From Methanothrix sp. (GTDB taxonomy: Archaea; Halobacteriota; Methanosarcinia; Methanotrichales; Methanotrichaceae), in assembly GCA_040770465.1 (NCBI GenBank), contig JAXGJB010000044.1, positions 1 through 22,739 on the forward strand: a stretch of 22,739 bases of DNA. The letters run 5' to 3'. Positions 745-21,739 of this stretch are shown piece by piece. Under the pieces are notes generated by a model. That model was not told where the DNA came from, did not search any database, and was given only the letters and a program-made list of their open reading frames with translations. The first letter of the stretch is position 1. Each line of letters starts with the position of its first letter. The position numbers and the translations under genes were made by a program.

Positions 745-1755
745 TCAGGTTGCTACCCCATTGTCGTTCAGGTTCCGGAGAACCTTGTAGCGGAAGGTGT
801 TCCCCTCGCTGGGATTATCGTAGGCCATCAGTACCATCTCGGGCCGCGTAAGATCGTCCAGGTTCGCGATCGCCACCCCTGCGCCAGCACCCTCCCAGCC
901 GACACCCCCAACCTCCACGTAGCTGTTGTCCCATCTGTTCGCCACGCCGTTGTTGTTGAGGTTCCAGCCGACCTTGTAGCGGAAGCTGTTCGCCTCGGCG
1001 GGGTTATCGTAGGCCATCAGGATCATCTCGGGCCGCGAATGCTCATCCAGGTTCACGATGGCGATGCCGGCACCCTGACCCTCCCAGCCGACACCCTCAA
1101 CCTCCACGTAGCCGTTGTCCCATCTCTCCGCCACGCCGTTGCTGTTGAGGTTCCAGCCGACCTTGTAGCGGAAGCTGTTCGCCTCGGCGGGGTTATCGTA
1201 GGCCATCAGCACCATATCGGGTCGAGAATCGCCATCCAGATTAGCTATGGCGACACCTGCGCCAGCGCCCTCCCAGCCGACACCCCCGACTTCTATGTAG
1301 CTGTTGTCCCATCTCTCCGCCACGCCGTAGCTGTTGAGGTTCCAGCCGACCTTGTAGCGGAAGCTGTTCGCCTGGGCAGGGTTATCGTAGGCCATCAGCA
1401 CCATATCGGGCCGAGAATTCCCGTCCAGGTTCGCGATCGCCACCCCTGCGCCAGCACCCTCCCAGCCGACGCCCCCGACTTCTATGTAGCTGTTGTCCCA
1501 TCTGTTCGCTATGCCGTTGCCGTCGAGGTTCCAGCCGACCTTGTAGCGGAAGCTGTTCGCCTCGGAGGGATTATCGTAGGCCATCAGCACCATATCGGGC
1601 CGAGAATCCCCGTCCAGGTTCGCGATCGCGACGTCAGCGCCCTGACCTTCCCAACCGACACCTTCAACGGTCGTATACTGGGCAAATGCCGGAGAGATTA
1701 CAAAACAACATAACGCAGTCGCGAGACAAACGCTCACCATCAACTTTGACCTCAT
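745..1755 (-). CDS. Secreted protein made of five 63-aa FG-GAP/VCBS-like repeats (putative Ca-binding beta-propeller)
   Basis: Signal peptide ending in PAFA-Q and RBS GAGGTGG at 1762-1768. Five repeats of GVGWEG.GA.VAIANLDGDSRPDMVLMAYDNP..ANSFRYKVGWNL..NG.A.RWDN.Y. NLDGDSRPD resembles Dx[DN]xDG blade loops. Confidence 0.88.
   Translation of the reverse strand: MRSKLMVSVCLATALCCFVISPAFAQYTTVEGVGWEGQGADVAIANLDGDSRPDMVLMAYDNPSEANSFRYKVGWNLDGNGIANRWDNSYIEVGGVGWEGAGAGVAIANLDGNSRPDMVLMAYDNPAQANSFRYKVGWNLNSYGVAERWDNSYIEVGGVGWEGAGAGVAIANLDGDSRPDMVLMAYDNPAEANSFRYKVGWNLNSNGVAERWDNGYVEVEGVGWEGQGAGIAIVNLDEHSRPEMILMAYDNPAEANSFRYKVGWNLNNNGVANRWDNSYVEVGGVGWEGAGAGVAIANLDDLTRPEMVLMAYDNPSEGNTFRYKVLRNLNDNGVAT
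748..1680 (-). repeat. Five tandem 189-bp coding repeats
   Basis: TTATCGTAGGCCATCAG recurs at 815, 1004, 1193, 1382 and 1571, an exact 189-bp period. Confidence 0.95.
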
Positions 1756-2383: not shown

Positions 2384-3424
2384 TCAACGGGAGTCGGTCT
2401 CGTTGACCATGAGACCAGTCTCGTTGACCATGATAGTCCCGTTGACCAAGGTCCCGTTGACCAAGGTCTCGTTGACCAAGGTCTCATTGACCATGATCTC
2501 GGTCTCGTTGACCATGATCTCGGTCTCGTTGACCATGATCTCAGTCTCGTTGACCATGATCTCGGTCTCGTTGACCATGATCTCGGTCTCGTTGACCATG
2601 ATCTCGGTCTCGTTGACCATGATCTCGGTCTCGTTGACCATGATCTCGGTCTCGTTGACCATGATCTCGGTCTCGTTGACCACGGGCTCGGTCTCGTTGA
2701 CCATGATCTCGGTCTCGTTGACCATGATCTCGGTCTCGTTGACCACGGGCTCGGTCTCGTTGACCACGGGCTCTTCGACTGCTACCTCAGTCCCGCTGAC
2801 GGCGGTTAGTATTGGCCCAGTCTCGTTGATCACCGGAGCTGCAGGCCCGGTCTCGTCGATCACAGGTGCTGCAGGCCCAGTCTCGTCGATCACAGGTGCT
2901 GCAGGCCCGGTCTCGTCGATCACAGGTGCTGCGGGCCCGGCCTCGCTGACGACTGGCGCCGAGGGGCCTACTACCTCACACGACCCCGTGCTCGCCGCGG
3001 GGGTTCCCATCCCTATGGAATAGGGCTGCATAGCGTTCGATCCCATGGTATACTGATAGGGACTACCAGAGCCGACGGTGTAAGTCTGAAGGCCGCTCGA
3101 TCCAATCGAATACTGGTAGGGGCTTTCCGAACCGACGGTGTAAATCTGAAGGCCGCTCGATCCAATCGAGTACTGGTAGGGGCTTCCCGAACCGACGGTG
3201 TAAGTCTGAAGGCCGCTCGATCCAATCGAATACTGGTAGGGGCTTTCCGAACCGACGGTGTAAGTCTGAAGGCCGCTCGACCCAACCGAATACTGATAGG
3301 GGCTTCCCGAACCGACGGTATATGATGGAGTAGCTGAACTGCAAATTGTATATGCCACTGCTGGCGATAACATGATGGCTGCCAAGAGAAGCGCCGCCGA
3401 AACCGCCAAAAATCCTCTGGTCAT
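2384..3424 (-). CDS. Secreted low-complexity surface glycoprotein (Y/S/G-rich 20-aa repeats, Pro/Ala linker repeats, VNET sequon array)
   Basis: Signal peptide ending in PAVA-Y, RBS GGAGG at 3434-3438, and three in-frame repeat blocks whose variation preserves the protein pattern. Confidence 0.88.
   Translation of the reverse strand: MTRGFLAVSAALLLAAIMLSPAVAYTICSSATPSYTVGSGSPYQYSVGSSGLQTYTVGSESPYQYSIGSSGLQTYTVGSGSPYQYSIGSSGLQIYTVGSESPYQYSIGSSGLQTYTVGSGSPYQYTMGSNAMQPYSIGMGTPAASTGSCEVVGPSAPVVSEAGPAAPVIDETGPAAPVIDETGPAAPVIDETGPAAPVINETGPILTAVSGTEVAVEEPVVNETEPVVNETEIMVNETEIMVNETEPVVNETEIMVNETEIMVNETEIMVNETEIMVNETEIMVNETEIMVNETEIMVNETEIMVNETEIMVNETLVNETLVNGTLVNGTIMVNETGLMVNETDSR
2480..2773. repeat. 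21-bp tandem repeat, about 14 copies, encoding (EIM/EPV)VNET
   Basis: Unit GGTCTCGTTGACCATGATCTC. Five further degenerate 15-21 bp copies lie at about 2395-2479. Confidence 0.95.
2814..2963. repeat. 30-bp tandem repeat, 5 copies, encoding AAPVIDETGP
   Basis: Unit GGCCC(A/G)GTCTCGTCGATCACAGGTGCTGCA with a 30-bp period; the last copy is degenerate. Confidence 0.9.
3051..3320. repeat. 60-bp tandem repeat, about 4.5 copies, encoding YTVGS(G/E)SPYQYSIGSSGLQT
   Basis: Units begin at 3051, 3111, 3171, 3231 and 3291 and are nearly identical, with no unique spacers. Confidence 0.95.
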
Positions 3425-3685: not shown

Positions 3686-4984
3686 TTACAGAGGAGGCCC
3701 CTGATTCTTCGAAACGGGACGCTCTTCCCCGTACATCTGGGAGGTCACCACGTCCCACCGGCTCCACTCTCCAGGGGAGTAAGTTCCGGCAAGGTCGCGA
3801 ATTATAAGCCCACCATACCCCCGATCCAGAGACCTTTTGAGGAGGGCTTTCGCCTCATCTGGATCGCTCAAAACCACCTCGTCCGCCAGAAATACCTTCG
3901 CAGAGAGGGGAGTTCCCGCAACGCCTCTCAGGACACCGCTCAGATACCTCCTCCTTTCAGCGTAGCTTTCATCAATAAGCTCCGTTCCGTTGAGGTAGAG
4001 GAGATCTGATGCCGCGAAGGACGAGACCGCTGAATCTTTCGACCTCCCTTTGAGGTTGATCTTTCCGAGCATCTCCGACCGGGGCGAGATATCCCCTCGA
4101 AGGACCAGGACGAACTCGCCCTCCATGATGAAGTTGCCCTTCGCCCTCATCAACTCCTCCGCCAGGTCGGCCAGAGACGAAGTGACGTTCCGAAGCTGGC
4201 TTGTATAGACGAAGACCTGTTCGTTGAACTTGTGGACCTGAACCCTAAGCCCGCCGTACCTGACGACGTAAGCTCTCGGCCCATCCCCCTCGATCGTCTC
4301 CCAGGGGTCCTTGCTCCGCCTGAAGAGCATGAGCCTTGCCGGGTTTGGTGGCGCGATCCTCACGTCGAATATCTCATCTCGAGAAGCGCTGAGAGCCACC
4401 ATCCCAAAATCCGGAAGACGCGCATAAGCCCTCTTCACCAGGGACTCGTCGGCAGAGAAGGCCTTCCCAATGGCCGCCGACATCAGGGACGGGCCCAGCC
4501 CCACCATCATCCTCCCGAGGACGGTCCTGGCTATGTACTTGGCCTCCAGAGGGGAGGCGCCGAGAAGAAGCCCCTTCAGGATGGATTTCTTTCTGAACGT
4601 GGATCCAGCTCCCCTCTGAGCAGGTATCATTCGGAGGGAGTCGTATACCTGCAACATATCCGTCGTCGTCCTGGTCAGGGTCTGCTGAGACCGGCTCTGA
4701 GCCATCGCCTCGGCCAGATCTCCTGCATCGGCTCCTTTAGGCTGCGAAGATACGGCCCGACCGGAGATCTCCTCCAGAACCTCCCTGAGGATCTCGGGGC
4801 CTATCCCCATCTCCTGCGGTTCCCAGGGGGGCCAGAGGCGACCCGATAGAAGCCTGACGGCGGGCCGGATTATCTCGGGAGAGAGACCTTTCATTAGAGA
4901 TGCCAGCAGATCGGCCTTGGCCTCTCTCCGTTCCTCTCTGGATACCGCCTCCAGAGCCCTTGCGATCTCGATGTAAGGAGGCAT
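3686..4984 (-). CDS. ATP-dependent DNA ligase-like protein (N-terminal DNA-binding domain plus degenerate adenylation domain, no OB fold), probably catalytically inactive
   Basis: DBD motifs (EMGIG, GDLAE, ASPLEAKYIARTVLGRMMVGLG, VKRAY..PDFG.VA). Motif I reads VRYGGLRVQVHK versus canonical xKxDGxRxQxHK; motif III MEGEFV; IIIa SDLLYLNG; IV GGLIIRD versus EGxxxK. The protein ends just after motif V. Confidence 0.85.
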   Translation of the reverse strand: MPPYIEIARALEAVSREERREAKADLLASLMKGLSPEIIRPAVRLLSGRLWPPWEPQEMGIGPEILREVLEEISGRAVSSQPKGADAGDLAEAMAQSRSQQTLTRTTTDMLQVYDSLRMIPAQRGAGSTFRKKSILKGLLLGASPLEAKYIARTVLGRMMVGLGPSLMSAAIGKAFSADESLVKRAYARLPDFGMVALSASRDEIFDVRIAPPNPARLMLFRRSKDPWETIEGDGPRAYVVRYGGLRVQVHKFNEQVFVYTSQLRNVTSSLADLAEELMRAKGNFIMEGEFVLVLRGDISPRSEMLGKINLKGRSKDSAVSSFAASDLLYLNGTELIDESYAERRRYLSGVLRGVAGTPLSAKVFLADEVVLSDPDEAKALLKRSLDRGYGGLIIRDLAGTYSPGEWSRWDVVTSQMYGEERPVSKNQGPPL

Positions 4985-6223: not shown

Positions 6224-6263
6224 TCAGGCGAAGGGTTTCAGAAATCGGTTCGCCTTCGCCTGA
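6224..6263 (-). terminator. 11-bp stem-loop straddling the ftsZ stop codon
   Basis: TCAGGCGAAGG (6224-6234) pairs perfectly with CCTTCGCCTGA (6253-6263). A short U-rich tract follows on the minus strand. Confidence 0.4.
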
Positions 6264-7416
6264 GAAAATCTATCCCATGTTTGGAGACGACCCGGCTCGA
6301 TCTCAGATCTTCCTTGCCCAGGATCTGAGGAGACGAGACGCCGGTCACCACCAGCATCGTCCTGATGCCGTTGTCGAGGCTCGGATCGATCTGGGCACCC
6401 CAGATGATCCTCGCTTCTGGGTTTATCCTCTCGTAGACCTGTTCCACCACCGTCTCGGCATCGGAGATCGTCATGCTCGATCCGCCCACCACGTTGACCA
6501 GCGCCGAGGTCGCTCCAGAGATGTCCACATCCAGGAGGGGGCTTCTCAGGGCTTTGATCACCGAGTCTTTGCTCTTCATCTCGCCTTCGGCCTCCCCGAG
6601 ACCGATCATGGCGACGCCCCCGTTGGACATTATCGTCCTGACGTCGGCGAAGTCGAGATTTATCAGGCCAGGCCTTGTGATAAGCTCCGTTATCCCCTTG
6701 ACCGAACGCATCAAAACCTCGTCCGCCACCTTGAAGGCCGCCTGGAGGGGAAGATCGGGGACGACTTCGAGGAGCCGGTCGTTGGGGACCACGATGACGG
6801 TGTCTGATACCTCTCGGAGCCGTTTCAGCCCAACATCGGCGTTGGCCATCCTGATCGCCCCTTCGGCGGCGAAGGGGAGGGTCACCACAGAGATGGTGAG
6901 AGCGCCCATCTCCCTTGCCACCTCCGCAACGACCGGGGCGGCACCGGTCCCGGTCCCGCCGCCGAGGCCGCAGGTGATGAAGACCATGTCCGCCCCCTCC
7001 ACTGCGGCCCTGATCTCATCTATGCTCTCCCTCGCCGCCTCTTCTCCAATGGATGGGAGGCTCCCCGCCCCAAGGCCCCGGGTCGTCCTTCGCCCGATCA
7101 GGAGCCGCCGGTCCGCGTTTATGTGGAGAAGGTGCTGAGCGTCGGTGTTCATGGCAAAGAGCTCGGCGCCCTCGATCCCGGTCTCGGCAAGCCGCTCGAT
7201 GGTGTTGGACCCACCTCCGCCGCAGCCGATTACCTTTATGACCGTTGTGAGCTGCTCCAGAACCGCCACCAGATCATCGTCGTTCTCCATGGACCTCGAC
7301 ACAACTCTCCGATCTTCAAGATCTTCGTCGTCCTCCATGACCCTCGACGGAACTGTCCGGCCCTCGAGCTCAGCTCTATTAAGAGCTTCATCTATAATCG
7401 ACTTCACGTCCATCAC
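6238..7416 (-). CDS. ftsZ: Cell division protein FtsZ (archaeal FtsZ1-like)
   Basis: [17 protein letters not shown], tubulin signature [10 protein letters not shown]7 loop INLDFAD, IIWGA, N-terminal extension and C-terminal GIDF. Start is GTG 7416 or ATG 7413. Confidence 0.98.
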
Positions 7417-10897: not shown

Positions 10898-11404
10898 TCA
10901 GGGGCAGGAGATCCATTCCGCTGCCCCTTGAGAAGAGCTCTGGTTCGATCCCAGCTTGATCGTCATATCAATGGAGAAGACGCCCACTAGATCCGTTACC
11001 CTCCTGCCGTACTCCGCGGGGCGTCCGCTGCCTCCTCCCTGGGCCAGGCCGACGCCGGTCAAAGCTCCGCCAAAAAGTCCGGTTTCGTCGAGGCCCGGAG
11101 AGGCAGAGGTCGCGTTCTCATCCTGCGATCTGTTCTCCGCTCCGGGGTCGCCGAAGCTGGCGTTGAGGCTCTCGTTCTCCATCCCCGTCGTGTTCAGGCT
11201 CTCGGCATCAGCGGTGGAGTTGAGACTGAACCCGGCACCCGGCGACCAGTCGATGACGATCGCACCGCCTTCAAGCCGAAAGAGCCCCCCCGTCGCCCCG
11301 GAGCTTCCGCCATCCTCGACGGCCCCAGCTGGAAAGACGCAGATGGACAGAAAGAGAGAGAGGACCAGATAAGTCCCAACGGCCAGAAGCGATTCAGAAC
11401 CCAA
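10898..11404 (-). CDS. Hypothetical secreted protein
   Basis: Hydrophobic N-terminal signal, six N-x-S/T sequons and a C-terminal beta segment TDLVGVFSIDMTIKL...WISCP. TTG start is uncertain. Confidence 0.65.
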   Translation of the reverse strand: MGSESLLAVGTYLVLSLFLSICVFPAGAVEDGGSSGATGGLFRLEGGAIVIDWSPGAGFSLNSTADAESLNTTGMENESLNASFGDPGAENRSQDENATSASPGLDETGLFGGALTGVGLAQGGGSGRPAEYGRRVTDLVGVFSIDMTIKLGSNQSSSQGAAEWISCP

Positions 11405-12198: not shown

Positions 12199-12999
12199 AT
12201 GTTAAATTGTTTTAGGATAGAACTGCTATTACTTGTCGTAGCAATAGTGTTACCTATTGTGGCATTCTCTGAACCAGATTACAATACATACGATGCCTCG
12301 GAATTCAGCGTCGAATATCCTTCAGATTGGCAAGTTGAGAATAAGGTCTTTGAAAAAGGGAATTCGAGTTTCACTTTTCTCTCTGAAAATCGTTCAATAA
12401 GCGTTGTTCTTTCGCCCACAAATCTAAATTGTTTTTTAATTGGCTTTAACAGGGGAAATTTCTCTATCCCTAGAAATCAAGCCAATTTCTCCTACAGAAG
12501 ATTCAAACCCCCAGCAGAAAATGAAGCTCCTTTAGGGACACGTGAAAACCCGCTCCCTATTGGAGAGTATAGCCTCACCACATTTGATAAATGGAAAATA
12601 TCTGTCATAAGCGTCATTCCAAACGCAACTGATATTGTGCTTGAGGAGAACACGTCCAACTATCCACCAAAAGCCGGGTATCAATTTTTCTTAGCAAGAA
12701 TTAGAGCCTGCTATGTCGGCTCGGGTTCTGACGAATTTAAAGGTCCAATTGTCCCAGGCTCTGGCGGAGTACCTCTCAAGAGGTTGAAGGCTCTTGGTGC
12801 ATCAAATGTGGTTTACAAAAGGGACGACCTATGCGGTGTGATTCCCGATCCGCTACCAGATTCTGAGGTTCTCTCTGGCGAATGTCTCGAGGGATATGTT
12901 GGATGGGAGATAAAATCAACTGATGCTACCTCGTTGGTGATGTTTGATGGGGGCCCCGTAATCAAAGGCGAGCACAAATATCTCTCACTTGTACCTTAA
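12199..12999 (+). CDS. Secreted protein: short PsbP-like N-terminal segment plus DUF4352-like Ig-fold domain
   Basis: Signal peptide; YNTY...EFSVEYPSDWQV (PsbP-like start); GTRENPLPIGE...WKISV..V.PNAT..V..EN..N.PP.AG.QF..A.I...YVG; EV..G...EGYV.WEI. Codon usage is AT-rich. Confidence 0.7.
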   Translation: MLNCFRIELLLLVVAIVLPIVAFSEPDYNTYDASEFSVEYPSDWQVENKVFEKGNSSFTFLSENRSISVVLSPTNLNCFLIGFNRGNFSIPRNQANFSYRRFKPPAENEAPLGTRENPLPIGEYSLTTFDKWKISVISVIPNATDIVLEENTSNYPPKAGYQFFLARIRACYVGSGSDEFKGPIVPGSGGVPLKRLKALGASNVVYKRDDLCGVIPDPLPDSEVLSGECLEGYVGWEIKSTDATSLVMFDGGPVIKGEHKYLSLVP

Positions 13000-13282: not shown

Positions 13283-14104
13283 TCACCAGACGTAGACCCA
13301 TATCGGGTTGCTCCAACCGGAGCGGCTTCCCCATACCGCTATCTGGTGCCATCCTTGGGCATCGGCCCCAAACCAGGCGTGGCGGTAGCCTGGATACCAG
13401 TATCCCCAGAACTGCCATGATTCATATCCGCTGGGGTACCTCTCATAAGACCAGAGCATCTGGTATTGGTCGTTCCTTATGATGGTGTTCGTCTGCTGGC
13501 CGTAGATCAGGGATGCGGGCCCGTAAGTCCACCTTCCGCAATAGTAGATCCACTGCTGAAGCCCGCCGCGGTACCGCTGGTAAGGCTGGGTCCCGCCGTA
13601 ATAGCTCTGAAAAGCCACCTGCGACCCGGCCCCAGACCCCGGGGGAGCCGCAAGGCCGCCGGGCGCCATGAGGCTGGAACCTCCCGGAAGTCTGCTCACC
13701 TCGAGCTCGGATAGACCCGCCCCGTCTTCGAGGTATGGGATAGAAGACCCCGTCGATGCAGAAGGGGTGCTCGAGGGCTCGCGGCCTTCGGGTCTGGTGG
13801 TGGTGGGCGTGCCATCCCGGAAGGTGAACTGCTCTGGCGTCGGCTCTGTTATTGGACGAGCCTCCTCCAACGGGCTCAGCCAGCCGTATTCCCACCCATA
13901 TGTCCAGCCGTCGCCCCATCGATACGACCAGGTATAATCCCACTCGCTTTGCCGGTCATCCTGCCCCGACCTCAGAAGCGGCCAGGGATCGTGATCGGGA
14001 TACGGATGCGGACCTCCATCCCACGACTGTGCCGAGGAGAGCGCCGCCATTAAAATGGTGGCAGCAAAGGCCAGCACGAATCCAGTTCCTATCTTTCTGT
14101 TCAA
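13283..14104 (-). CDS. Secreted Trp/Tyr-rich protein with C-terminal WF.AD beta-sandwich domain
   Basis: Signal peptide ending in SSA-Q, RBS GAGGTGG at 14111-14117 before TTG, P/S/T linker, and C-terminal YE.YP.G...GY...WFGAD..G.H......SN.I.V.V. Confidence 0.8.
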   Translation of the reverse strand: MNRKIGTGFVLAFAATILMAALSSAQSWDGGPHPYPDHDPWPLLRSGQDDRQSEWDYTWSYRWGDGWTYGWEYGWLSPLEEARPITEPTPEQFTFRDGTPTTTRPEGREPSSTPSASTGSSIPYLEDGAGLSELEVSRLPGGSSLMAPGGLAAPPGSGAGSQVAFQSYYGGTQPYQRYRGGLQQWIYYCGRWTYGPASLIYGQQTNTIIRNDQYQMLWSYERYPSGYESWQFWGYWYPGYRHAWFGADAQGWHQIAVWGSRSGWSNPIWVYVW

Positions 14105-14621: not shown

Positions 14622-16208
14622 ATGAAGCTCTTAAGCCTGCTCGCCATCCTGCTCTTGCTGGTCGCCGTTTCCACGGCAGAGCTTGCGGCAGACGTAGATC
14701 GATTCGAATTGGAACTCCATCCTGGTGAGATGACCGAACGGGTCCTCGCCCTCGAGAACTCGGGGGACGGACCCATCCGCGAGCTCACCATGAGCCCCGT
14801 CGCCGGCAGTGCGAGAGATCTGGTGGAGATGGAGATTGAGGATTTTGAGATGCTCCTTCCGGGGGAGAAGGCGGTGGTGGATATCACCTTCACTTCGCCG
14901 TCGGAGACTATCCCCGGAACCTATTCGGGGTTCGTCTACTTCTTCGACGATGTATCCTCGCTGCCGATCATGGTGGAGTTTGTGATCGAGATCATCGAGC
15001 AGGAGAGCTATGGGGTCAGCTTCAGCATCGATGATGCGAGATCTGCCTCTTTGACCGCGGACCCTGATGAGCCCGCAGAGTTCGAGCTTCTGGTCAGAAA
15101 CGCGGGCCTCTTCAAGGACGTCATATCCATCGACGCCCCCCAGCTCCCGCCCCGATGGACGGCGACCCTCTTCGACGGCGCCGACGCCGTGGCCCTGCCC
15201 TACAACCTCACCCTCTCCTCGGGGGTGAGCCGGATCCTCGGCCTGGAGATCGCGGGCGGCAGGCCGGGAGAGACTCAGGAGATCGAGATCGAGGCGACGT
15301 CCCTTGGCGACCCCTCCAAGAACGCCACAGTGACCGCAGAGATCGAACTCAATCATGAGATCCGCCAGTATGAGGCGATCATCGACCTGCCGGCGGTTAT
15401 GGTCACCGACAGGACCCATACAGGATCCATCAGCATCGTTCTGAACGTCGACGAGCTGATCTCCGTCGAGATTGCAGCTCCTCCAGAAATTCTGGTGATG
15501 CCCGAAAGCCAGGTGATACCGGTCGGAGAGACGAGGTCGGGGAAGGGGGAGTTCACCCTCCTGGCCACCGAGCCGGGAAGGTTTGAGATCGAATTCTACC
15601 TCCACGACTCGTACAACATAAGCCTCCCCACCGAGAGCTCGGAGGTTCTGGTGGTGGATTCGGCCCAGTTCGCCATCGTGACCGGAGACGGCCTATTGTA
15701 CAGAGCTCTGGCCTTATCCTACTCTGAAGGGGTGGTGAACGATACCGTGCCCGTGATCACCCTCAAAGGCGGCGAGCTATCCGATGAAGACATCCAGCTC
15801 CTGGAAGAACTCCCCCTCGCCAAGGTCGTGATCCTTGGCAACGAGTCGGTCGTCTCCTCGGAGGTGGAGACGCTCCTCTCGGAGATGATGCCCACCGATA
15901 GGATAGGGGGCGACGACATCTGCGAGACGTCGTGGCTCTTCGCATCGACGATCTGGCCGAAGGGGGTTGACGCGGTGGTCCTGGCAGGATCGAACGAGTC
16001 GGAGGCATTTGCGGCATATCAGGAGGCGAAGAAGGTCGGTGCGCCTCTGATAATCTGCGGTGCCCCCCTCTCGGAGACGAGTTCTGCCGCGATGAAGGGT
16101 ATGAAGGAAGAGGGACTGTCCAGAGCCCTCATTGGAGGGGCCGGAGTAGATGCGAATGCTGTAGAGGCGCTGAAGGATGAGGGCCTCTCCATCGAGGAGG
16201 TGGGATAG
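14622..16208 (+). CDS. Secreted protein with about 3 Ig-like (COG1470/NEW3-like) domains and two C-terminal cell-wall-binding-2-like repeats
   Basis: Signal peptide; beta-sandwich motifs (L.PGE......L.N.G, PGTYSG, FEL.VRN.G...D). PVI...GELS......L.....KVVILG.ESVVS.EVE..L....DRIGGDDICETS and APLII match the CWB2 (PF04122) pattern. Confidence 0.78.
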   Translation: MKLLSLLAILLLLVAVSTAELAADVDRFELELHPGEMTERVLALENSGDGPIRELTMSPVAGSARDLVEMEIEDFEMLLPGEKAVVDITFTSPSETIPGTYSGFVYFFDDVSSLPIMVEFVIEIIEQESYGVSFSIDDARSASLTADPDEPAEFELLVRNAGLFKDVISIDAPQLPPRWTATLFDGADAVALPYNLTLSSGVSRILGLEIAGGRPGETQEIEIEATSLGDPSKNATVTAEIELNHEIRQYEAIIDLPAVMVTDRTHTGSISIVLNVDELISVEIAAPPEILVMPESQVIPVGETRSGKGEFTLLATEPGRFEIEFYLHDSYNISLPTESSEVLVVDSAQFAIVTGDGLLYRALALSYSEGVVNDTVPVITLKGGELSDEDIQLLEELPLAKVVILGNESVVSSEVETLLSEMMPTDRIGGDDICETSWLFASTIWPKGVDAVVLAGSNESEAFAAYQEAKKVGAPLIICGAPLSETSSAAMKGMKEEGLSRALIGGAGVDANAVEALKDEGLSIEEVG

Positions 16209-19200
16209 ATGAGACGCTTTTTAACTCTCCTGACGTTGTTTGCCATATTCGCGATCGCAGCCGGTGCCCAGATGGAGAGGGGGACCAAATCGGATTCTCT
16301 GGAAGAGATCATCCTGGTCGGGGCCGACGACTGGCGTCCAGCGGTCGCAGCGACGCCTCTTGGAATCTGGTCGGAGGACGGCGGCGTCGAGACGAGGCCC
16401 ATCCTGATATTGCCGAGGGATGTTCAGGCAAAAGAGAGGCTTGGCTGGATCGATCAGGCCGACCTCGAACGGTACGGCCCGGTCTCCGCCCTCCACGCCA
16501 TGACCGCGGCCAACGTATCGGCCCTGGTGATAGACGCCGATGGAGATCTCGCGAAGAGCCTGGTGGAGGCGGCCAAAAAAGAGGGGGTAAAAGCTTACGT
16601 CACCGCCACCCTGGACGTTCCAGATGACTCCGAGACGGGGGTCTCCGATGATGACGTCCTGGAGGCAGAGGACGAAAAAGCCGCCTTGGGACTTTTGGCG
16701 GAGATGCTCGTAGGGGACCATGAGGTCGAACCTGCCACCAGATCCGGCTCCGTTCCGGAGGAGTACAGAGACCTTTATCCTGACTCGGCCCAGATCGCCA
16801 TCGGCTCCGGCGGCGTCGTCATCTCTGACCGATTATGCCCCGTGGATCCCGATGCCAGAGATCATCTCTACGACCGGGTCGAGGAGGTGATAGAAGATTA
16901 CGGCGCTGACGGCGTCGTCCTCCTCGACTTCGGATTCATCGACGAAGATCACTGCCTCTGCGACGTCTGCAAGGAGGAGTTCTACAACGATACGGGGGTC
17001 GACCTGTCCAGAGCGGGGTCCAGCAGCTATAACCAGCAGCTTTGGGCCCGATGGAAAGAGGAGCAGATAAAAGAGGTCGTCGGGGAGGTGGGCAACATCA
17101 CCTCCCAGCTCGGTCCCGCGAAGCTCGGCATCGCCCTGGGCGACCCCTTCGACCGGAGCGAGGGATACAACTTCGCTGAGATCTCCGACCTCGCCGACTT
17201 CGTGGTGGTGAACCCCGTCGATCCGGCGGACATGGGAGTGGCAGCATCGATGACCGACACCCCCGTCTACGTCAGGCTCAGCGACGACTACGTAGAGTAC
17301 ACCATATCCACCCAGAACGTGGAGGGTGCCGTCGGCCAAATCGAAGATCTGGCAGAGGAAGGCGCCTCCGGGATGGTCTTCGAATATGACGTCGTCTACA
17401 CCCCCCTCTGGTCGGAGCTTCAGCCTCCGTCCCCCTCGGTCCAATGGCTCATGGACCGGCTGGAGGGCAGGACCCTGGGCATAGGCGACGTACTCTGGGA
17501 CTGCGACTCGGTCATAAAATATAATGACAGCTCTGAGATGGCATCAAAGATCGCCTCACGGTGGGAAAGCTCCCCCGGTGCGGTCCTGGTGGGCGACAAC
17601 TACAGCGCCGGCCTCACCGGCGCGGCCATAGCATCTTACCTCAACTGGCCGATCCTCTTCGTCGACGGCGAGCTCTCCAACACCACCGAAAACGACCTGC
17701 TCCGCCTCGGGGCGACGACTGCGATCACAATGGGGCCCGTATCCGAGAGGGCAATATCTCGCCTCACCGACCTGAACATGACGATCGTGGAGGGGGATAA
17801 TGAGCTATTGGTCCATGAGATGAGGGCCCGCGGGGACGATGTAAACTCAGTGGTCCTGACCAACTCTCACGACCTCTCCCTCCTCGCCCCTAAGCCGAAA
17901 CTGGTCCTGACCAGGACGGAGATCGACGAGAACCTCGTCCTCGAGGTTGAGGCGAACCCGGCTGAGATCCCATCCGATCAGGAGGGCGAGATCGTCCGGC
18001 TCAAGATAACCCTCAAGAACGACGGCGATGAGGTCCTGGAGGATCTGGACCTGACCGACGTTTTCCTCCCCACGAGGCTCGTAGCCTGGTGGAGCTCTGC
18101 ATCCGGAAAAGTCGAGGTCGTCGATCCCTTAACAGGAGAGGAGCCGACCGTCGAAAGCTCCTTTTTCAGCGGGACGAGCCTCAACTGGACCGTCGACCAG
18201 CTGGGGCCTAAAGAGTACGCATCTCTGAATCTGGAGGTGCTGATCCTCCACGCTCTGGACGCGGGGTGGACCCAGCCCCTGGACGGCGGGATCTGGGTGA
18301 CCTACCACGACATGGATGAAGATGAGGATGAAGACGATGAGGACGGAAACGGCGGCGAAGATGGTGATGCCGCCGCAGACGGCCCGTTCGCCAACATAAC
18401 CTACCCCTCCGTCACCTCGCCGGGATGGACAAATCTGTCCTGGGATGTTACAAGGGATTTGTCCACCGTGATCCTCAACTACCGCAGCCCCGATGGGAGC
18501 GAAGACAGCCTCTACTTCTACAGCTGCCGGCCGGGGAAGGTCTCCAACGCCACCGTCCTCTTTGGAAGGCCGGGAACCTGGACCTTCAACCTCGAGGCGT
18601 GGAGCCAAGGCGAGATGGATCACAGGACCGAGAACTTCACAGTGAGGGTCAGATCCGCCGCCAGCCCCATCAACGTGACCGCCTTCAGCTTCACCAAGAT
18701 CCCCAAGATTTCCCTCATCTCGGCAGAGATGGCCGGGGCGAGGGGAGGGATCCTCGTCGATGTTGCAACTGATCCTCAGGATATCGATCCATCGGAGGTG
18801 GAGGAGGACCTCCAGACCCTGGTCGAAGAGCTGGATATCTCGCCGGCGTACCTGATCGTGGTGGGCGGACCCGGATCTCTTCCCTTCATATCCACGGGAG
18901 ATAGACAAACGTCATGGATCTTCGAGTACGACCTGTACCGCGATTACACAATCCAGCTCGACGACGATGGCTACCAGGACGTCGCCACTGGGAGGATGAT
19001 GGGACTGAGCGTCTACGACGCCTCCCAGATGGCCGCCAGAACCCTCGCCTACGACAGGATTGGAGGCGACTGGAGAGACTCCGCCCTGATAATATCGTCA
19101 CCTGCCGACATTCCCACCTGGCCCGCGTCGCCGGTACCGCTGCGGATCGGAGAGTACCTGAGGGCTGCGGGGCTCGACGCCGAGAACCTCCGCTGGGAGG

Positions 19201-20639
19201 AGGCAACCTACCAGAGGGTATCCTCGAAGATGAACAGCGGCGAGAACATCGTCTACTTCGATTATCATGGTGTCGAATGGGGCTGGGAACTCTCTGTCTG
19301 GTCCCTGATGGACCAGCTTCTGGACGAGGAGCATGTCAAGCAGCTGACCCTCGCACCTCAGACCACCACCACTTCGGCCTGCCTCACCTCCAGGTTGAAG
19401 GGGGAGATCTTCCCTTACAGAGACGGGATCGAGATATACATCCCGATGAGGCTGGAGGACTCCATGGCCCTGGCGTTCCTCAAGGCGGGGGGCGTGAACT
19501 ATGCCGGACCTGCCGCCAACTCCTGGATATTCATCTCCGATGACTATGTAGGAAGGATGCATCAGGCCATGATCTTCGAGAACGCCACCATCGGCGATTC
19601 GATAATGGCTGCAAACAACCATTACGCGTCGAAGATCCTGGCCACCGAGGGGATCGATCTTGAGAAGATCGACGAAACCCAGATCTGGGACCTCTCCGTC
19701 GAGGAGATGCTCAACCAGACCGTGAGAGTCTTCACCCTCCTTGGAGATCCCGCCTTCAGGCCCTCGATACCGAAGACCCCGGAGCTGCCCTATTCGGTCG
19801 AGACCTCGAACGTCACCGAATCGAACGCCACAAACGATGTATCGGTAACCATCACCCCTTCATCAGAGTGGTCCAGCGACTGGATCTACTGGATCGTCGA
19901 GGACTCGTCGGACGACTATCTGAGCCTCAACTCGCCCGCCGCCCTGATTGGAGAGGTGACCCTCCCCATAGACGCCGAGGAGATCGTGGTGAAAGAGAAG
20001 GGACGGGCTGTATGGCACGGCGAAGAATTGATCGGATCGTTCAAGCGGGTGACTTGGCCGGTTCTGAGCCCCGCCCTCGGCGAGAGCAGGACATTCACCG
20101 TCGAGTACAGGCTGATCCCGGGGGAGGTCCAGGTCGTCAACGTCTCGGTGGGGTGGACACCATTCTCCCTCCACCTCGCACCGAAGGATCCTTCCGTCAC
20201 CAAGCTCCTGGATAAGAAGGACTATCGAGGGATATTCACCATCGCAGGAGACGGCTGGAACTACACCATCAACGACGACCAGGCCGTCAACGTGACAGAC
20301 CTCGTGCCTGGGAGGGGGTACATCATAGACGGCCTGGAGAGCTTCTCCCTGGAGATAGCCGGAAAGCCGGTAGACCTCCCCTATGCTGTGGAGCTTTACG
20401 AGGGCTGGAACCTGGTGGGAGTTCCCAAAAACGAGACGGTCTTCCTCACCAACGTCACAGTGAGGGCGAACCACAAGCGATATTCATACTCCGAAGCCGT
20501 CGATGAGGGGATAGTCTCCGCCTTCCTCTGGACTTATCGGGACGGAGGTTGGGTCAATATAGAGAAGAACGAACCCATGATCCCCGGGGTGGCCTACATG
20601 GTGGAGGCTGCAGAAGAGTGCAAGCTGGAGTTTGGCTGA
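16209..20639 (+). CDS. Large secreted multidomain hydrolase: CWB2-like repeats, glycoside hydrolase-like TIM barrel, DUF11/Ig-like domains, peptidase C25 (gingipain-like) and paired GWN repeats
   Basis: Signal peptide. GH-like LCP.DP..R..L...VEEV...Y.ADGV.L.D with C.C..C. CWB2-like AA.ASYLNWPILFVDG.LS. C25 motifs YL.VVGG...LP, VATGR..G, YHG (H1020), SACLT (C1058), A.AFL..GG..Y.G, TIG, LLGDP. C-terminal GW(T/N)....PG.(G/A)Y repeats. RBS GGAGGTGG at 16196-16203. Confidence 0.85.
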   Translation: MRRFLTLLTLFAIFAIAAGAQMERGTKSDSLEEIILVGADDWRPAVAATPLGIWSEDGGVETRPILILPRDVQAKERLGWIDQADLERYGPVSALHAMTAANVSALVIDADGDLAKSLVEAAKKEGVKAYVTATLDVPDDSETGVSDDDVLEAEDEKAALGLLAEMLVGDHEVEPATRSGSVPEEYRDLYPDSAQIAIGSGGVVISDRLCPVDPDARDHLYDRVEEVIEDYGADGVVLLDFGFIDEDHCLCDVCKEEFYNDTGVDLSRAGSSSYNQQLWARWKEEQIKEVVGEVGNITSQLGPAKLGIALGDPFDRSEGYNFAEISDLADFVVVNPVDPADMGVAASMTDTPVYVRLSDDYVEYTISTQNVEGAVGQIEDLAEEGASGMVFEYDVVYTPLWSELQPPSPSVQWLMDRLEGRTLGIGDVLWDCDSVIKYNDSSEMASKIASRWESSPGAVLVGDNYSAGLTGAAIASYLNWPILFVDGELSNTTENDLLRLGATTAITMGPVSERAISRLTDLNMTIVEGDNELLVHEMRARGDDVNSVVLTNSHDLSLLAPKPKLVLTRTEIDENLVLEVEANPAEIPSDQEGEIVRLKITLKNDGDEVLEDLDLTDVFLPTRLVAWWSSASGKVEVVDPLTGEEPTVESSFFSGTSLNWTVDQLGPKEYASLNLEVLILHALDAGWTQPLDGGIWVTYHDMDEDEDEDDEDGNGGEDGDAAADGPFANITYPSVTSPGWTNLSWDVTRDLSTVILNYRSPDGSEDSLYFYSCRPGKVSNATVLFGRPGTWTFNLEAWSQGEMDHRTENFTVRVRSAASPINVTAFSFTKIPKISLISAEMAGARGGILVDVATDPQDIDPSEVEEDLQTLVEELDISPAYLIVVGGPGSLPFISTGDRQTSWIFEYDLYRDYTIQLDDDGYQDVATGRMMGLSVYDASQMAARTLAYDRIGGDWRDSALIISSPADIPTWPASPVPLRIGEYLRAAGLDAENLRWEEATYQRVSSKMNSGENIVYFDYHGVEWGWELSVWSLMDQLLDEEHVKQLTLAPQTTTTSACLTSRLKGEIFPYRDGIEIYIPMRLEDSMALAFLKAGGVNYAGPAANSWIFISDDYVGRMHQAMIFENATIGDSIMAANNHYASKILATEGIDLEKIDETQIWDLSVEEMLNQTVRVFTLLGDPAFRPSIPKTPELPYSVETSNVTESNATNDVSVTITPSSEWSSDWIYWIVEDSSDDYLSLNSPAALIGEVTLPIDAEEIVVKEKGRAVWHGEELIGSFKRVTWPVLSPALGESRTFTVEYRLIPGEVQVVNVSVGWTPFSLHLAPKDPSVTKLLDKKDYRGIFTIAGDGWNYTINDDQAVNVTDLVPGRGYIIDGLESFSLEIAGKPVDLPYAVELYEGWNLVGVPKNETVFLTNVTVRANHKRYSYSEAVDEGIVSAFLWTYRDGGWVNIEKNEPMIPGVAYMVEAAEECKLEFG

Positions 20640-20670: not shown

Positions 20671-20707
20671 AAAGAAAAAATTGCCATGACCTAATCAGGT
20701 CATGGCA
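20671..20707 (-). terminator. Perfect 11-bp hairpin plus U-tract terminator between convergent genes
   Basis: TGCCATGACCT-AATC-AGGTCATGGCA (20682-20707), followed on the minus strand by TTTTTTCTTT. Confidence 0.7.
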
Positions 20708-20737: not shown

Positions 20738-21739
20738 TCAATTACCGGTCCAATATCTCCCTTTGCAATCGTTTCCTCCCTCGTCCCTGGTGCAAACCCG
20801 GAGCTGACAGGTGTCCTCGTCGGTGTATCCGTTGCAGGTCACATTACAGGTGTAGTAACCCGCGTCGCTCTCCTGGACGTTCCTTATGATGTAGGTGCTG
20901 GAGGTGGCCCCCTCGATGATCACTCCCGTCTCGGTGGACATCCCCTTATACCACTGGTAGCTGGGATCTTCGCAGCCCGAGACAAGCGCTCTCAGGGTGG
21001 CTGTCTCATTCCTGCACTTGCACTCGTTGGGGACGACGACGGCCAGGTTCTCGAAGACTCTGTACCTGATCTTATTGCTCTTGGTGATGACGTTCGTCTT
21101 CTCGTTTTGGACCTCGTACCAGACGGTGTAGTCGCCCGCCGAATCCGCACTGAACCAGACGTGGTAGGCCCTCTGCGCCTTCACCCGCCATTCGGGAACG
21201 TAAGTATGTTTAGTCCCGTCGGGCTTCAGCTCGCTGATGGTCAACTTCCCGTCCATCCCCGGTATTATCAGCTCCTTCGCGTACCTCCCCTTCTGTATCT
21301 CGAGCTTTGTGGTCCGGACGTTGGTGCTGTACGGAAAGACGATCCACAGGGCGTTCTCTTCGGGACCGGGCATCCCCGGATGGTCGATGGTGTCTCCCCA
21401 TCCGAACTCCTCCCCCTCAGATCCGGCGTAATCGCTGTAGAAGCCCTCGTCGATGACCCAGTCGTCGACATCGGCGCTTCCGTCCGACGACGCGTCAGAG
21501 ACCTCGTCACCCGAAACGTCGTCTGCCGAAACACCGCCGTCCGAGACGTTCTCTTCAGAGGAGGGTCCCACCTCACCTGGAGTCTCCCAGACGAAGTCGT
21601 CGCCAAAATCGAGCTCGTCGCCGAACGGGGACCAGTCCTCTCCGAAGGGCAAGGCCATCTCTTCATCCGCTCCGAGGGACGGAGAGACCAAGAATAGGCC
21701 GATGACCAATGCGGCCGTCAAAAGTTCAATCGCCTTCAT
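20738..21739 (-). CDS. Secreted protein: acidic disordered N-terminus, WF.AD beta-sandwich domain, Cys-rich immunoglobulin I-set-like domain
   Basis: Signal peptide; D/E/S-rich tract; ISELKPDG...WFSADSAG.Y.....SNKI.Y.V; then SYQWYKG...IEGATSSTY.I.NVQESDAGYYTC.V. Confidence 0.82.
   Translation of the reverse strand: MKAIELLTAALVIGLFLVSPSLGADEEMALPFGEDWSPFGDELDFGDDFVWETPGEVGPSSEENVSDGGVSADDVSGDEVSDASSDGSADVDDWVIDEGFYSDYAGSEGEEFGWGDTIDHPGMPGPEENALWIVFPYSTNVRTTKLEIQKGRYAKELIIPGMDGKLTISELKPDGTKHTYVPEWRVKAQRAYHVWFSADSAGDYTVWYEVQNEKTNVITKSNKIRYRVFENLAVVVPNECKCRNETATLRALVSGCEDPSYQWYKGMSTETGVIIEGATSSTYIIRNVQESDAGYYTCNVTCNGYTDEDTCQLRVCTRDEGGNDCKGRYWTGN

Follow-up and report, generated by a model that had tools for sequence, protein, structure and literature searches.

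The window analysed here, a contig of 22,739 nucleotides from Methanothrix sp. (JAXGJB010000044.1), carries two directly abutting genes that encode a small and a large secreted protein. The large protein joins a C25 (gingipain-type) cysteine protease module to CWB2-like repeats and to a TIM barrel of glycosidase type, and the small one also has CWB2 repeats. With about even confidence, we propose that the pair is a secreted, envelope-tethered, non-membrane cysteine-protease unit dedicated to the Methanothrix-type sheath. The proposal builds on what was observed: the domains present in each protein, a His-Cys dyad that is intact, a barrel that has lost its catalytic motifs, the strict linkage of the two genes and their phyletic pattern.

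An earlier note on this DNA had described the genes as abutting exactly and their products as carrying signal peptides and no membrane anchor, and these points were confirmed. The stop codon TAG of the small gene is followed immediately by the ATG of the large one. A single hydrophobic stretch, located at the N-terminus, was detected in each protein by a hydropathy check rather than by SignalP (Kyte-Doolittle 19-residue means of 2.46 and 2.01, elsewhere at most 1.46). The orthologues from M. thermoacetophila are listed with a signal peptide and zero transmembrane helices in Table S5 of PMC11576556; in the supplement of PMC10470525, Mthe_0182, which we took as an orthologue by its annotation, is scored 'no' for a signal peptide. 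Both genes are covered by RNA contigs, which come from four runs of a single digester study; one of these contigs (15423-16378) crosses the junction, although contigs do not prove a single transcript.

The C25 domain was recognized by both profile and fold. Pfam PF01364 (Peptidase C25) matched residues 878-1184 of the large protein with 101.9 bits against a cut-off of 23 (E 6e-29). An AlphaFold2 model of residues 22-1200 was computed from 95 rows, i.e. the protein of the window, the protein P0102 and 93 of the 96 database matches (the self hit and two fragments were omitted). The model, with a predicted local distance difference test score (pLDDT) of 84.3 and a predicted template modelling score of 0.82, contains both gingipain-fold subdomains. 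It superposed with RgpB at Z 31.0 and a root mean square deviation (rmsd) of 2.9 over 306 aligned residues (chain 239-579), a match which was replicated in a second structural search, and with Kgp at Z 29.6; the two matches cover about 306-310 residues at rmsd 2.9-3.0. A single-sequence search of the PDB gave no match. The dyad predicted by the earlier note, His1020 and Cys1058, is invariant in the alignment. Since the RgpB match begins at residue 545 (model 523/524, aa 544/545), the first C25 strand precedes an insertion of about 260 residues, consisting of two beta-sandwich domains (about aa 560-815) that interrupt the N-terminal subdomain. Asp163 of RgpB, which we take to be the residue of the S1 pocket responsible for Arg specificity, aligns with the invariant Pro975 in a gapped loop of low pLDDT. 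Judged from this alignment, Arg/Lys specificity appears unlikely, and the cleavage specificity probably differs from that of RgpB.

The glycoside hydrolase (GH) and CWB2 domain types claimed by the earlier note were likewise recovered by family profiles and folds, although the Pfam matches to CWB2 (440-506) and GHL10 (209-297) in the large protein were below the cut-off. Repeat D is matched by the Cwp6 profile, whereas the sequence signal of repeat C is marginal (18% to repeat D in hhalign). The CWB2 region of Cwp8 (residues 315-599) superposed on the model at Z 16.0 and rmsd 3.1, with 241 of its 285 residues aligned between aa 30 and 926 (model residues 9 and 905). Repeats C and D comprise only about 180 residues, and the N-terminal subdomain of C25 must therefore supply the rest of this match. 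The large protein is thus predicted by the model to form a CWB2-like trimer of its own, with the C25 N-terminal subdomain as the third repeat; in one compact unit, repeat 1 would bear the barrel and repeat 3 the protease. This trimer rests on one model and one superposition. Comparing the C25 subdomain with CWB2 by sequence gave hhalign probabilities of 0.1-2.3, no better than controls, and no CWB2 protein was among the best 50 rows of the second structural search, which ended at Z 17.8, above the Cwp8 score. When residues 22-545 were modelled alone (30 rows), the repeat-C segments fell below pLDDT 50, which may be due to the missing C-terminal part, the shallower alignment or both. The CWB2 domains of C. 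difficile have a toprim fold and form a trefoil which binds the polysaccharide PSII and for which all three repeats are needed (PMC5842191). A trimer pooled from the repeats of both proteins was considered and is not needed: the model of the large protein has three, and the ANME-1 (anaerobic methanotrophic archaea, group 1) partners described below have none. A complex prediction with large-protein residues 545-1310 and small-protein residues 24-245, from which the barrel, repeats C and D and the CWB2 part of the small protein were left out, scored 0.00 with controls that did not fold, and is evidence neither way. The GW(N) domain at the C-terminus (20121-20636) has no Pfam family; it recurs in unrelated proteins of other Halobacteriota, and the atlas search returned only unnamed, mostly archaeal clusters.

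The small protein consists of a signal peptide, three putative Ig-like domains and two CWB2 repeats. Its family profile matched Cwp8 at E 1.8e-19, Pfam CWB2 scored above the cut-off at 427-515 (28.4 bits against 24.9), and CWB2 was found at E<=0.01 in 16 of 29 orthologues. Its repeats matched repeat D of the large protein with hhalign probabilities of 85 and 97. CWB2-like repeats in both proteins, as proposed earlier, are thus borne out, by Pfam in the small protein and by the Cwp6 match of repeat D (E 3.8e-8) in the large one. The ANME-1 partner (278-365 aa) has the Ig1-Ig2 tandem only and no CWB2 repeats, and the conserved part of the small protein is the Ig tandem.

Each of the two proteins was matched in 37 of 61 related genomes, namely in all 37 Methanotrichaceae (16 genera) and in none of the 24 genomes from two sister families. 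In all 37, the matches lie on one contig and strand with 3-59 bases between them, and there is one locus per genome. Because order and adjacency are kept throughout, the linkage, which the earlier note had made a test of its proposal, is more than chance. The neighbouring genes differ among 20 wider loci of the family, which therefore defines a two-gene unit (the open reading frame (ORF) filter dropped the small gene at one of these loci, where another search found it). Each of the 96 matches to the large protein has an identity of 46% or more, with none intermediate, and those relatives that are named belong to Methanocrinis, Methanothrix and Methanotrichaceae. When the N-terminal 524 residues were compared as a profile with 1.84 billion representatives, the combined architecture was seen only in Methanotrichaceae and in the proteins P0102 and P0103, the former of which comes from ANME-1 ERB7. 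With P0102 as the query, 39 of 401 genomes of the phylum were matched: the whole gene was present in 13 genomes of the source family and in 6 of 54 from ANME-1, and the other 20 matches were single-domain. In a set of 66 ANME-1 genomes, the large gene occurs in seven, six of which belong to the genus g82 and one to g103. In five of seven named ANME-1 loci, a short homologue of the first two Ig-like domains of the small protein lies directly upstream; the other two begin inside the large gene and have no upstream DNA.

In one ANME-1 record (L047:2075-6706), an in-frame stop right after CWB2 repeat D leaves frames of 533 and 1004 aa, which may reflect a natural split, read-through or an error. 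In some orthologues (P0094 and P0096), about 95 additional aa separate the catalytic domain from the C-terminal domains. A search for a fusion of the two genes among proteins of 1013-2890 aa, weak by the tool's own note, gave none. In the sampled genomes from four of five genera, this gene is the only C25 match, and other C25 genes are common in ANME-1 (28/54 genomes). The source genome has two more secreted C25 genes with long N-terminal extensions (C7:34729-37890 and C30:25262-27703), which were both missed by our own family profile and found by Pfam. The usual His-Gly and Cys motifs appear to be replaced in the C30 copy, which may thus be inactive.

The SH sheath proteins have been reported from all Methanotrichales, Methanospirillum, Methanolinea and some ANME-1, without a reported conserved gene context, and further proteins could not be tied to sheath or plug formation in that study (PMC11576556). 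Its Table S5 lists the orthologues ABK13981.1 and ABK13982.1 as enriched in sheathed Methanotrichales (13/13 vs 0/35). Two QENH01 genomes hold 10+8 and 7+1 SH proteins (PMC11576556), and an ANME-1 record with this whole-genome shotgun prefix (L046) carries the pair. The source genome has secreted SH-like genes in multiple copies, from which we built three 4-row profiles. A9 matched the SH-like viral sequences of PMC11576556 by motif and A10 matched the same ANME-1 ORFs as A9; A11 is presumed to be SH because of its tandem position and its fusion to Ig arrays. Among the 66 ANME-1 genomes, A9 and A10 matched six each (all g82) and A11 matched nine (five of g82, the genome G317 and three weak matches in g84). 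Strong SH matches (E<1e-10) were found in eight ANME-1 genomes and the pair in seven, with both in six. Within the phylum sample, A11 was found in 12/12 genomes of the source family, in 8/54 from ANME-1 and in none of the other 334. An atlas search with an SH-like protein gave no usable match. The phyletic correlation with sheathed methanogens suggested as a check by the earlier note is supported only in part: the whole gene was found in Methanotrichaceae and a few ANME-1, and Table S5 of PMC11576556 lists no such family for sheathed Methanomicrobiales.

Candidate substrates are at hand in the source genome. Its very large secreted adhesin-like proteins (1631-5756 aa; C10:47723-64990, C21:3586-18548 and C15:25625-30517) have an SH-like core near the C-terminus. 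Within the window, the gene at 10898-11404 (-) encodes an apparently secreted protein whose last 43 aa are similar to the terminal part of SH-type proteins (E 7e-5) and which has homologues at the corresponding site of 4 of 20 loci; it may be an SH protein, truncated or accessory, that lies close to the pair. A third family, defined by a 107-aa WFxAD domain without a Pfam match, is a candidate substrate or partner of the pair. Five genes of the source genome have this domain, and one of them lies directly upstream of an SH-like adhesin gene. A member lies upstream of the pair in four of the five g82 genomes having it and in 7 of the 20 Methanotrichaceae loci (one genus accounts for six of these), and the domain was found overall in 8/8 genomes of the source family, 2/31 from ANME-1 and 0/221 others. 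The gene on the other flank of the pair (20738-21739, -) encodes a secreted protein with an acidic N-terminus, a weak WFxAD match (E 4e-5) and a C-terminal Ig I-set domain (Pfam Ig_3, E 9e-10), so both flanks may belong to one family.

Several observations weigh against a role in the sheath. The A11 motifs were not found in the data file of PMC11576556. Two ANME-1 genomes (G341 and G317) have SH matches but no pair, and a third (G356) lacks an SH match but has the pair, its large gene being interrupted by a stop; each is 86% complete. Six of the seven ANME-1 carriers represent one genus and, as kin are not independent, the co-occurrence of the pair and SH amounts to about two independent events. 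The same pattern would be expected if envelope genes had been transferred in bulk. Sheathed Methanomicrobiales and other SH-bearing ANME-1 genera apparently do without the pair, and in the source genome the pair lies on contig C44 and the SH clusters elsewhere. Substrate, cutting and cross-linking are all inferred. To our knowledge, no bacterial PSII-type polymer occurs in these archaea.

If the pair does serve the sheath, the trimer and the degenerate barrel would bind envelope glycans between the membrane and the sheath, by analogy with the binding of PSII by CWB2 trimers in C. difficile. The C25 domain would make limited cuts in SH subunits, SH-adhesins or plug proteins, which might serve the maturation of these proteins or the opening of hoops for growth and filament breakage. 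The Ig tandem of the small protein could be an adaptor or a regulator acting in trans, since the large protein has no gingipain-type propeptide and the two other C25 genes have a long N-terminal extension. Cwp84 provides a precedent as a CWB2-tethered protease which matures a surface protein (PMC5842191). A broader version of this model is held more tentatively, as possible rather than likely: the pair, perhaps together with the WFxAD proteins, would be the missing assembly or remodelling machine of the amyloid-like Methanothrix-type sheath. Docked on glycans, its gingipain-fold enzyme would cut and possibly re-ligate SH hoops or plug proteins, which would allow a rigid tube to grow and to break, and it would have moved together with the SH genes between Methanotrichaceae and a single genus of ANME-1. 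It would follow that the N-terminal subdomain of gingipains is a CWB2/toprim-type repeat, here still sitting inside its trimer.

A general envelope maturation or quality-control protease, acting on the S-layer and secreted glycoproteins with no specificity for the sheath, seems unlikely. The match with SH would then reflect shared ancestry and one bulk transfer, which agrees with a phyletic signal of about two events. Cwp84 and Cwp13 have such general functions in C. difficile (PMC5842191), and magnetite raised the 'Peptidase C25' Mthe_0182 by factors of 1.95 and 2.5 (PMC10470525), possibly as a response to envelope stress. However, the DUF1608 S-layer and archaeosortase A are also present in Methanosarcina and relatives, where the pair was not found. 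The S-layer, the alternative target named by the earlier note, is thus a poor candidate for a specific one. Moreover, the presence of the pair in ANME-1 tracks matches to Methanothrix-type SH, in contrast to the other C25 genes, which are widespread there.

It also appears quite unlikely that the C25 domain works as a PorU-like transpeptidase, cutting a secreted substrate and moving its new C-terminus to a glycan or protein, by which hoops would be cross-linked or adhesins attached. PorU has a gingipain-like domain and works by transpeptidation (PMC5562754), and a dead sugar-binding barrel fixed beside the C25 site would fit the presentation of an acceptor. Weak matches to the PorU model were obtained with 23 of 30 orthologues (best E 5e-4), but the protein of the window scored 9.4-12.6 bits against the cut-off of 420 of NF033707, with about 26 residues covered. 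Archaeosortase A is present in 35 of 36 genomes of the family and the S-layer protein here has a PGF-CTERM, so that there is no anchoring gap to fill; replacement of archaeosortase A by the pair is ruled out by the same count. A shared C-terminal sorting domain was not noticed in crude secretome clusters, which were not a dedicated test.

The barrel raises the question of a second activity. Its fold (residues 74-407) is closest to Cwp19 (Z 24.1), followed by BpsB (23.0; PgaB/BpsB 22-23) and GH42 (20.3), and its four invariant cysteines (210, 249, 251 and 254) resemble the GH42 cluster. The GH-like barrel of the earlier note is thus supported as a fold. An active glycosidase is not supported, as most orthologues have lost the catalytic positions of GHL10/GH-A. 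Position 240, the acid after strand 4, which corresponds to Asp196 of Cwp19 and Asp466 of PgaB (PMC5765458; register from a profile alignment), is acidic in only 13 of 95 orthologues. Where all 15 nearest GHL10 relatives have a D-x-x-R motif, the barrel has Y/L-x-x-G; the strand-7 position (in register with Gly328 of Cwp19 by profile alignment) is Arg356 in 90 of 95, and neither the strand-3 Trp nor the P-M-x-Y motif is kept. On these sequence grounds, we consider that the barrel is probably a glycan-binding pseudo-enzyme. Its strands 4-8 are conserved like the protease (mean column identity 0.73 vs 0.68-0.73), which fits a binding role but would also suit a dual enzyme, in which an active barrel trims envelope glycans before proteolysis by means of non-canonical residues. 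Asp240 is kept in the protein of the window and in the ANME-1 forms, further acids are conserved (D315 in 94/95, D359, D360 and E392 in 94/95), and Cwp19 is active despite the lack of a strand-7 acid (PMC5765458). Such a dual enzyme, which is compatible with the other explanations, is very unlikely in view of the motif losses. Finally, a nutritional or lineage-marker protease without a structural role is highly improbable: many genes are family-specific by descent alone and enrichment tests in one order cannot separate sheath from ancestry, but the pair is kept in every sampled genome of the family, has a glycan-anchor architecture and, in a distant genus of ANME-1, is accompanied by SH-like genes and by the third family, and Methanothrix lives on acetate (PMC10470525).

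Table 1 Features of the gene pair and its surroundings (positions in the window)
Feature	Position	Strand	Basis or remark
Small secreted partner, 528 aa	14622..16208	+	ORF, Pfam, family profile vs Cwp8, hydropathy
Putative Ig1-Ig2 tandem, about aa 24-245	14691..15356	+	profile positions 1-207 match ANME-1 upstream genes
Two CWB2 repeats of the small protein, about aa 346-528	15657..16205	+	Pfam, family profile
Large secreted C25 protein, 1476 aa	16209..20639	+	ORF, Pfam, AlphaFold2 model, fold comparison
Predicted CWB2-like repeat C, about aa 30-72 and 407-452, barrel inserted	16296..17564	+	model secondary structure, Cwp8 superposition
TIM barrel, Cwp19/PgaB/GH42 type, aa 74-406	16428..17426	+	fold Z scores, column counts
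CWB2 repeat D, aa 453-543	17565..17837	+	profile vs Cwp6 E 3.8e-8; Pfam below cut-off
C25 N-terminal subdomain, first strand about aa 544-553, rest 820-948	17838..19052	+	RgpB and Cwp8 superpositions
Caspase/gingipain-fold catalytic subdomain, aa 949-1190	19053..19778	+	RgpB, Kgp superposition
Catalytic His1020, codon CAT	19266..19268	+	invariant 95/95; aligns with RgpB TGHG
Putative nucleophile Cys1058, codon TGC	19380..19382	+	invariant 95/95; kept in ANME-1 P0102
C-terminal beta domains: putative Ig-like (about 1205-1304) and twice-repeated GW(N) domain (1305-1476)	19821..20636	+	
Secreted protein with 107-aa Trp/Tyr-rich domain (WFxAD..GWH)	13283..14104	-	divergent, upstream of the pair
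11-bp hairpin, possible terminator, between the large gene and the convergent downstream gene	20682..20707	-	hairpin scan

Hairpins as a class were not significantly enriched in the window (5 seen vs 4.0 expected in shuffles), and a sigma-70 promoter scan, which does not cover archaeal promoters, gave results at chance level. Several other genes of the window encode secreted proteins. The product of 745-1755 (-), 336 aa long, has five near-identical FG-GAP-like repeats of about 63 aa and is a probable beta-propeller. The low-complexity protein encoded at 2384-3424 (-) has six Ser/Gly/Tyr repeats of about 21 aa followed by about 20 units of 7 aa; the unit contains an N-E-T sequon, and dense N-glycosylation is predicted. 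The gene at 12199-12999 (+), coding for 266 aa, lies in an island of 42% GC (about 58% elsewhere) and is absent from the other 20 loci, which makes a recent insertion likely. The 432-aa product of 3686-4984 (-) we take to resemble a shortened ATP-dependent DNA ligase; its gene is located in the region upstream of an ftsZ-like gene (6238-7416).

The entry of new hoops into the archaeal sheath and the builders of the plugs were stated to be open questions in PMC11576556. The pair offers one concrete candidate enzyme, a nucleophile which can be mutated (Cys1058) and named candidate substrates for this question, and orthologues exist in cultured strains (M. thermoacetophila ABK13981.1 and M. harundinacea AET63894.1). 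Methanotrichaceae filaments scaffold the granules of anaerobic digesters and electron-transfer partnerships, and their growth and breakage are therefore of practical weight. If the proposed role is correct, the large protein would work on a functional amyloid-like wall, which would give it a broader interest. The subdomain predicted to be common to the CWB2 trimer and gingipains would link two families of surface proteins which have been treated apart so far. The earlier note knew of no description of this architecture. Both orthologues are in fact listed in Table S5 of PMC11576556, but that table gives no function, architecture, barrel or ANME-1 occurrence, and the terms 'C25', 'peptidase' and 'gingipain' are absent from the main text of the paper (whole-text term search). 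A functional study of the pair was not found in the literature searched, which did not extend to subscription papers and most supplements; sheath proteomes may list the proteins. The pair is thus an uncharacterised variant of known parts, in which the architecture and the ANME-1 link are newly described and the enrichment was already in a published supplement.

Three known systems resemble parts of the pair. The whole catalytic module superposes with the gingipains RgpB and Kgp (MEROPS C25, PF01364) and their His-Cys dyad is invariant here, whereas the propeptide and the C-terminal signal of the type IX secretion system are missing from the large protein. According to the model, its N-terminal subdomain, split by the two beta-sandwich domains, would in addition be joined into the CWB2-like trimer. 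PorU, the sortase of type IX secretion, shares a C25-type domain, partner subunits and the character of a surface-processing machine, but the match is far below the family cut-off and there is no outer membrane, PorV or anionic lipopolysaccharide context. With the C. difficile proteins Cwp8, Cwp6, the SlpA anchor, Cwp84 and Cwp19, the pair shares CWB2 repeats and the logic of a tethered surface enzyme, although the source archaeon presumably has neither peptidoglycan nor PSII. The passenger domains are inserted inside the repeats here and appended to them in C. difficile, the protease is of the C25 type instead of the papain type (C1A) of Cwp84, and most orthologues of the barrel lack the equivalent of Asp196 of Cwp19.

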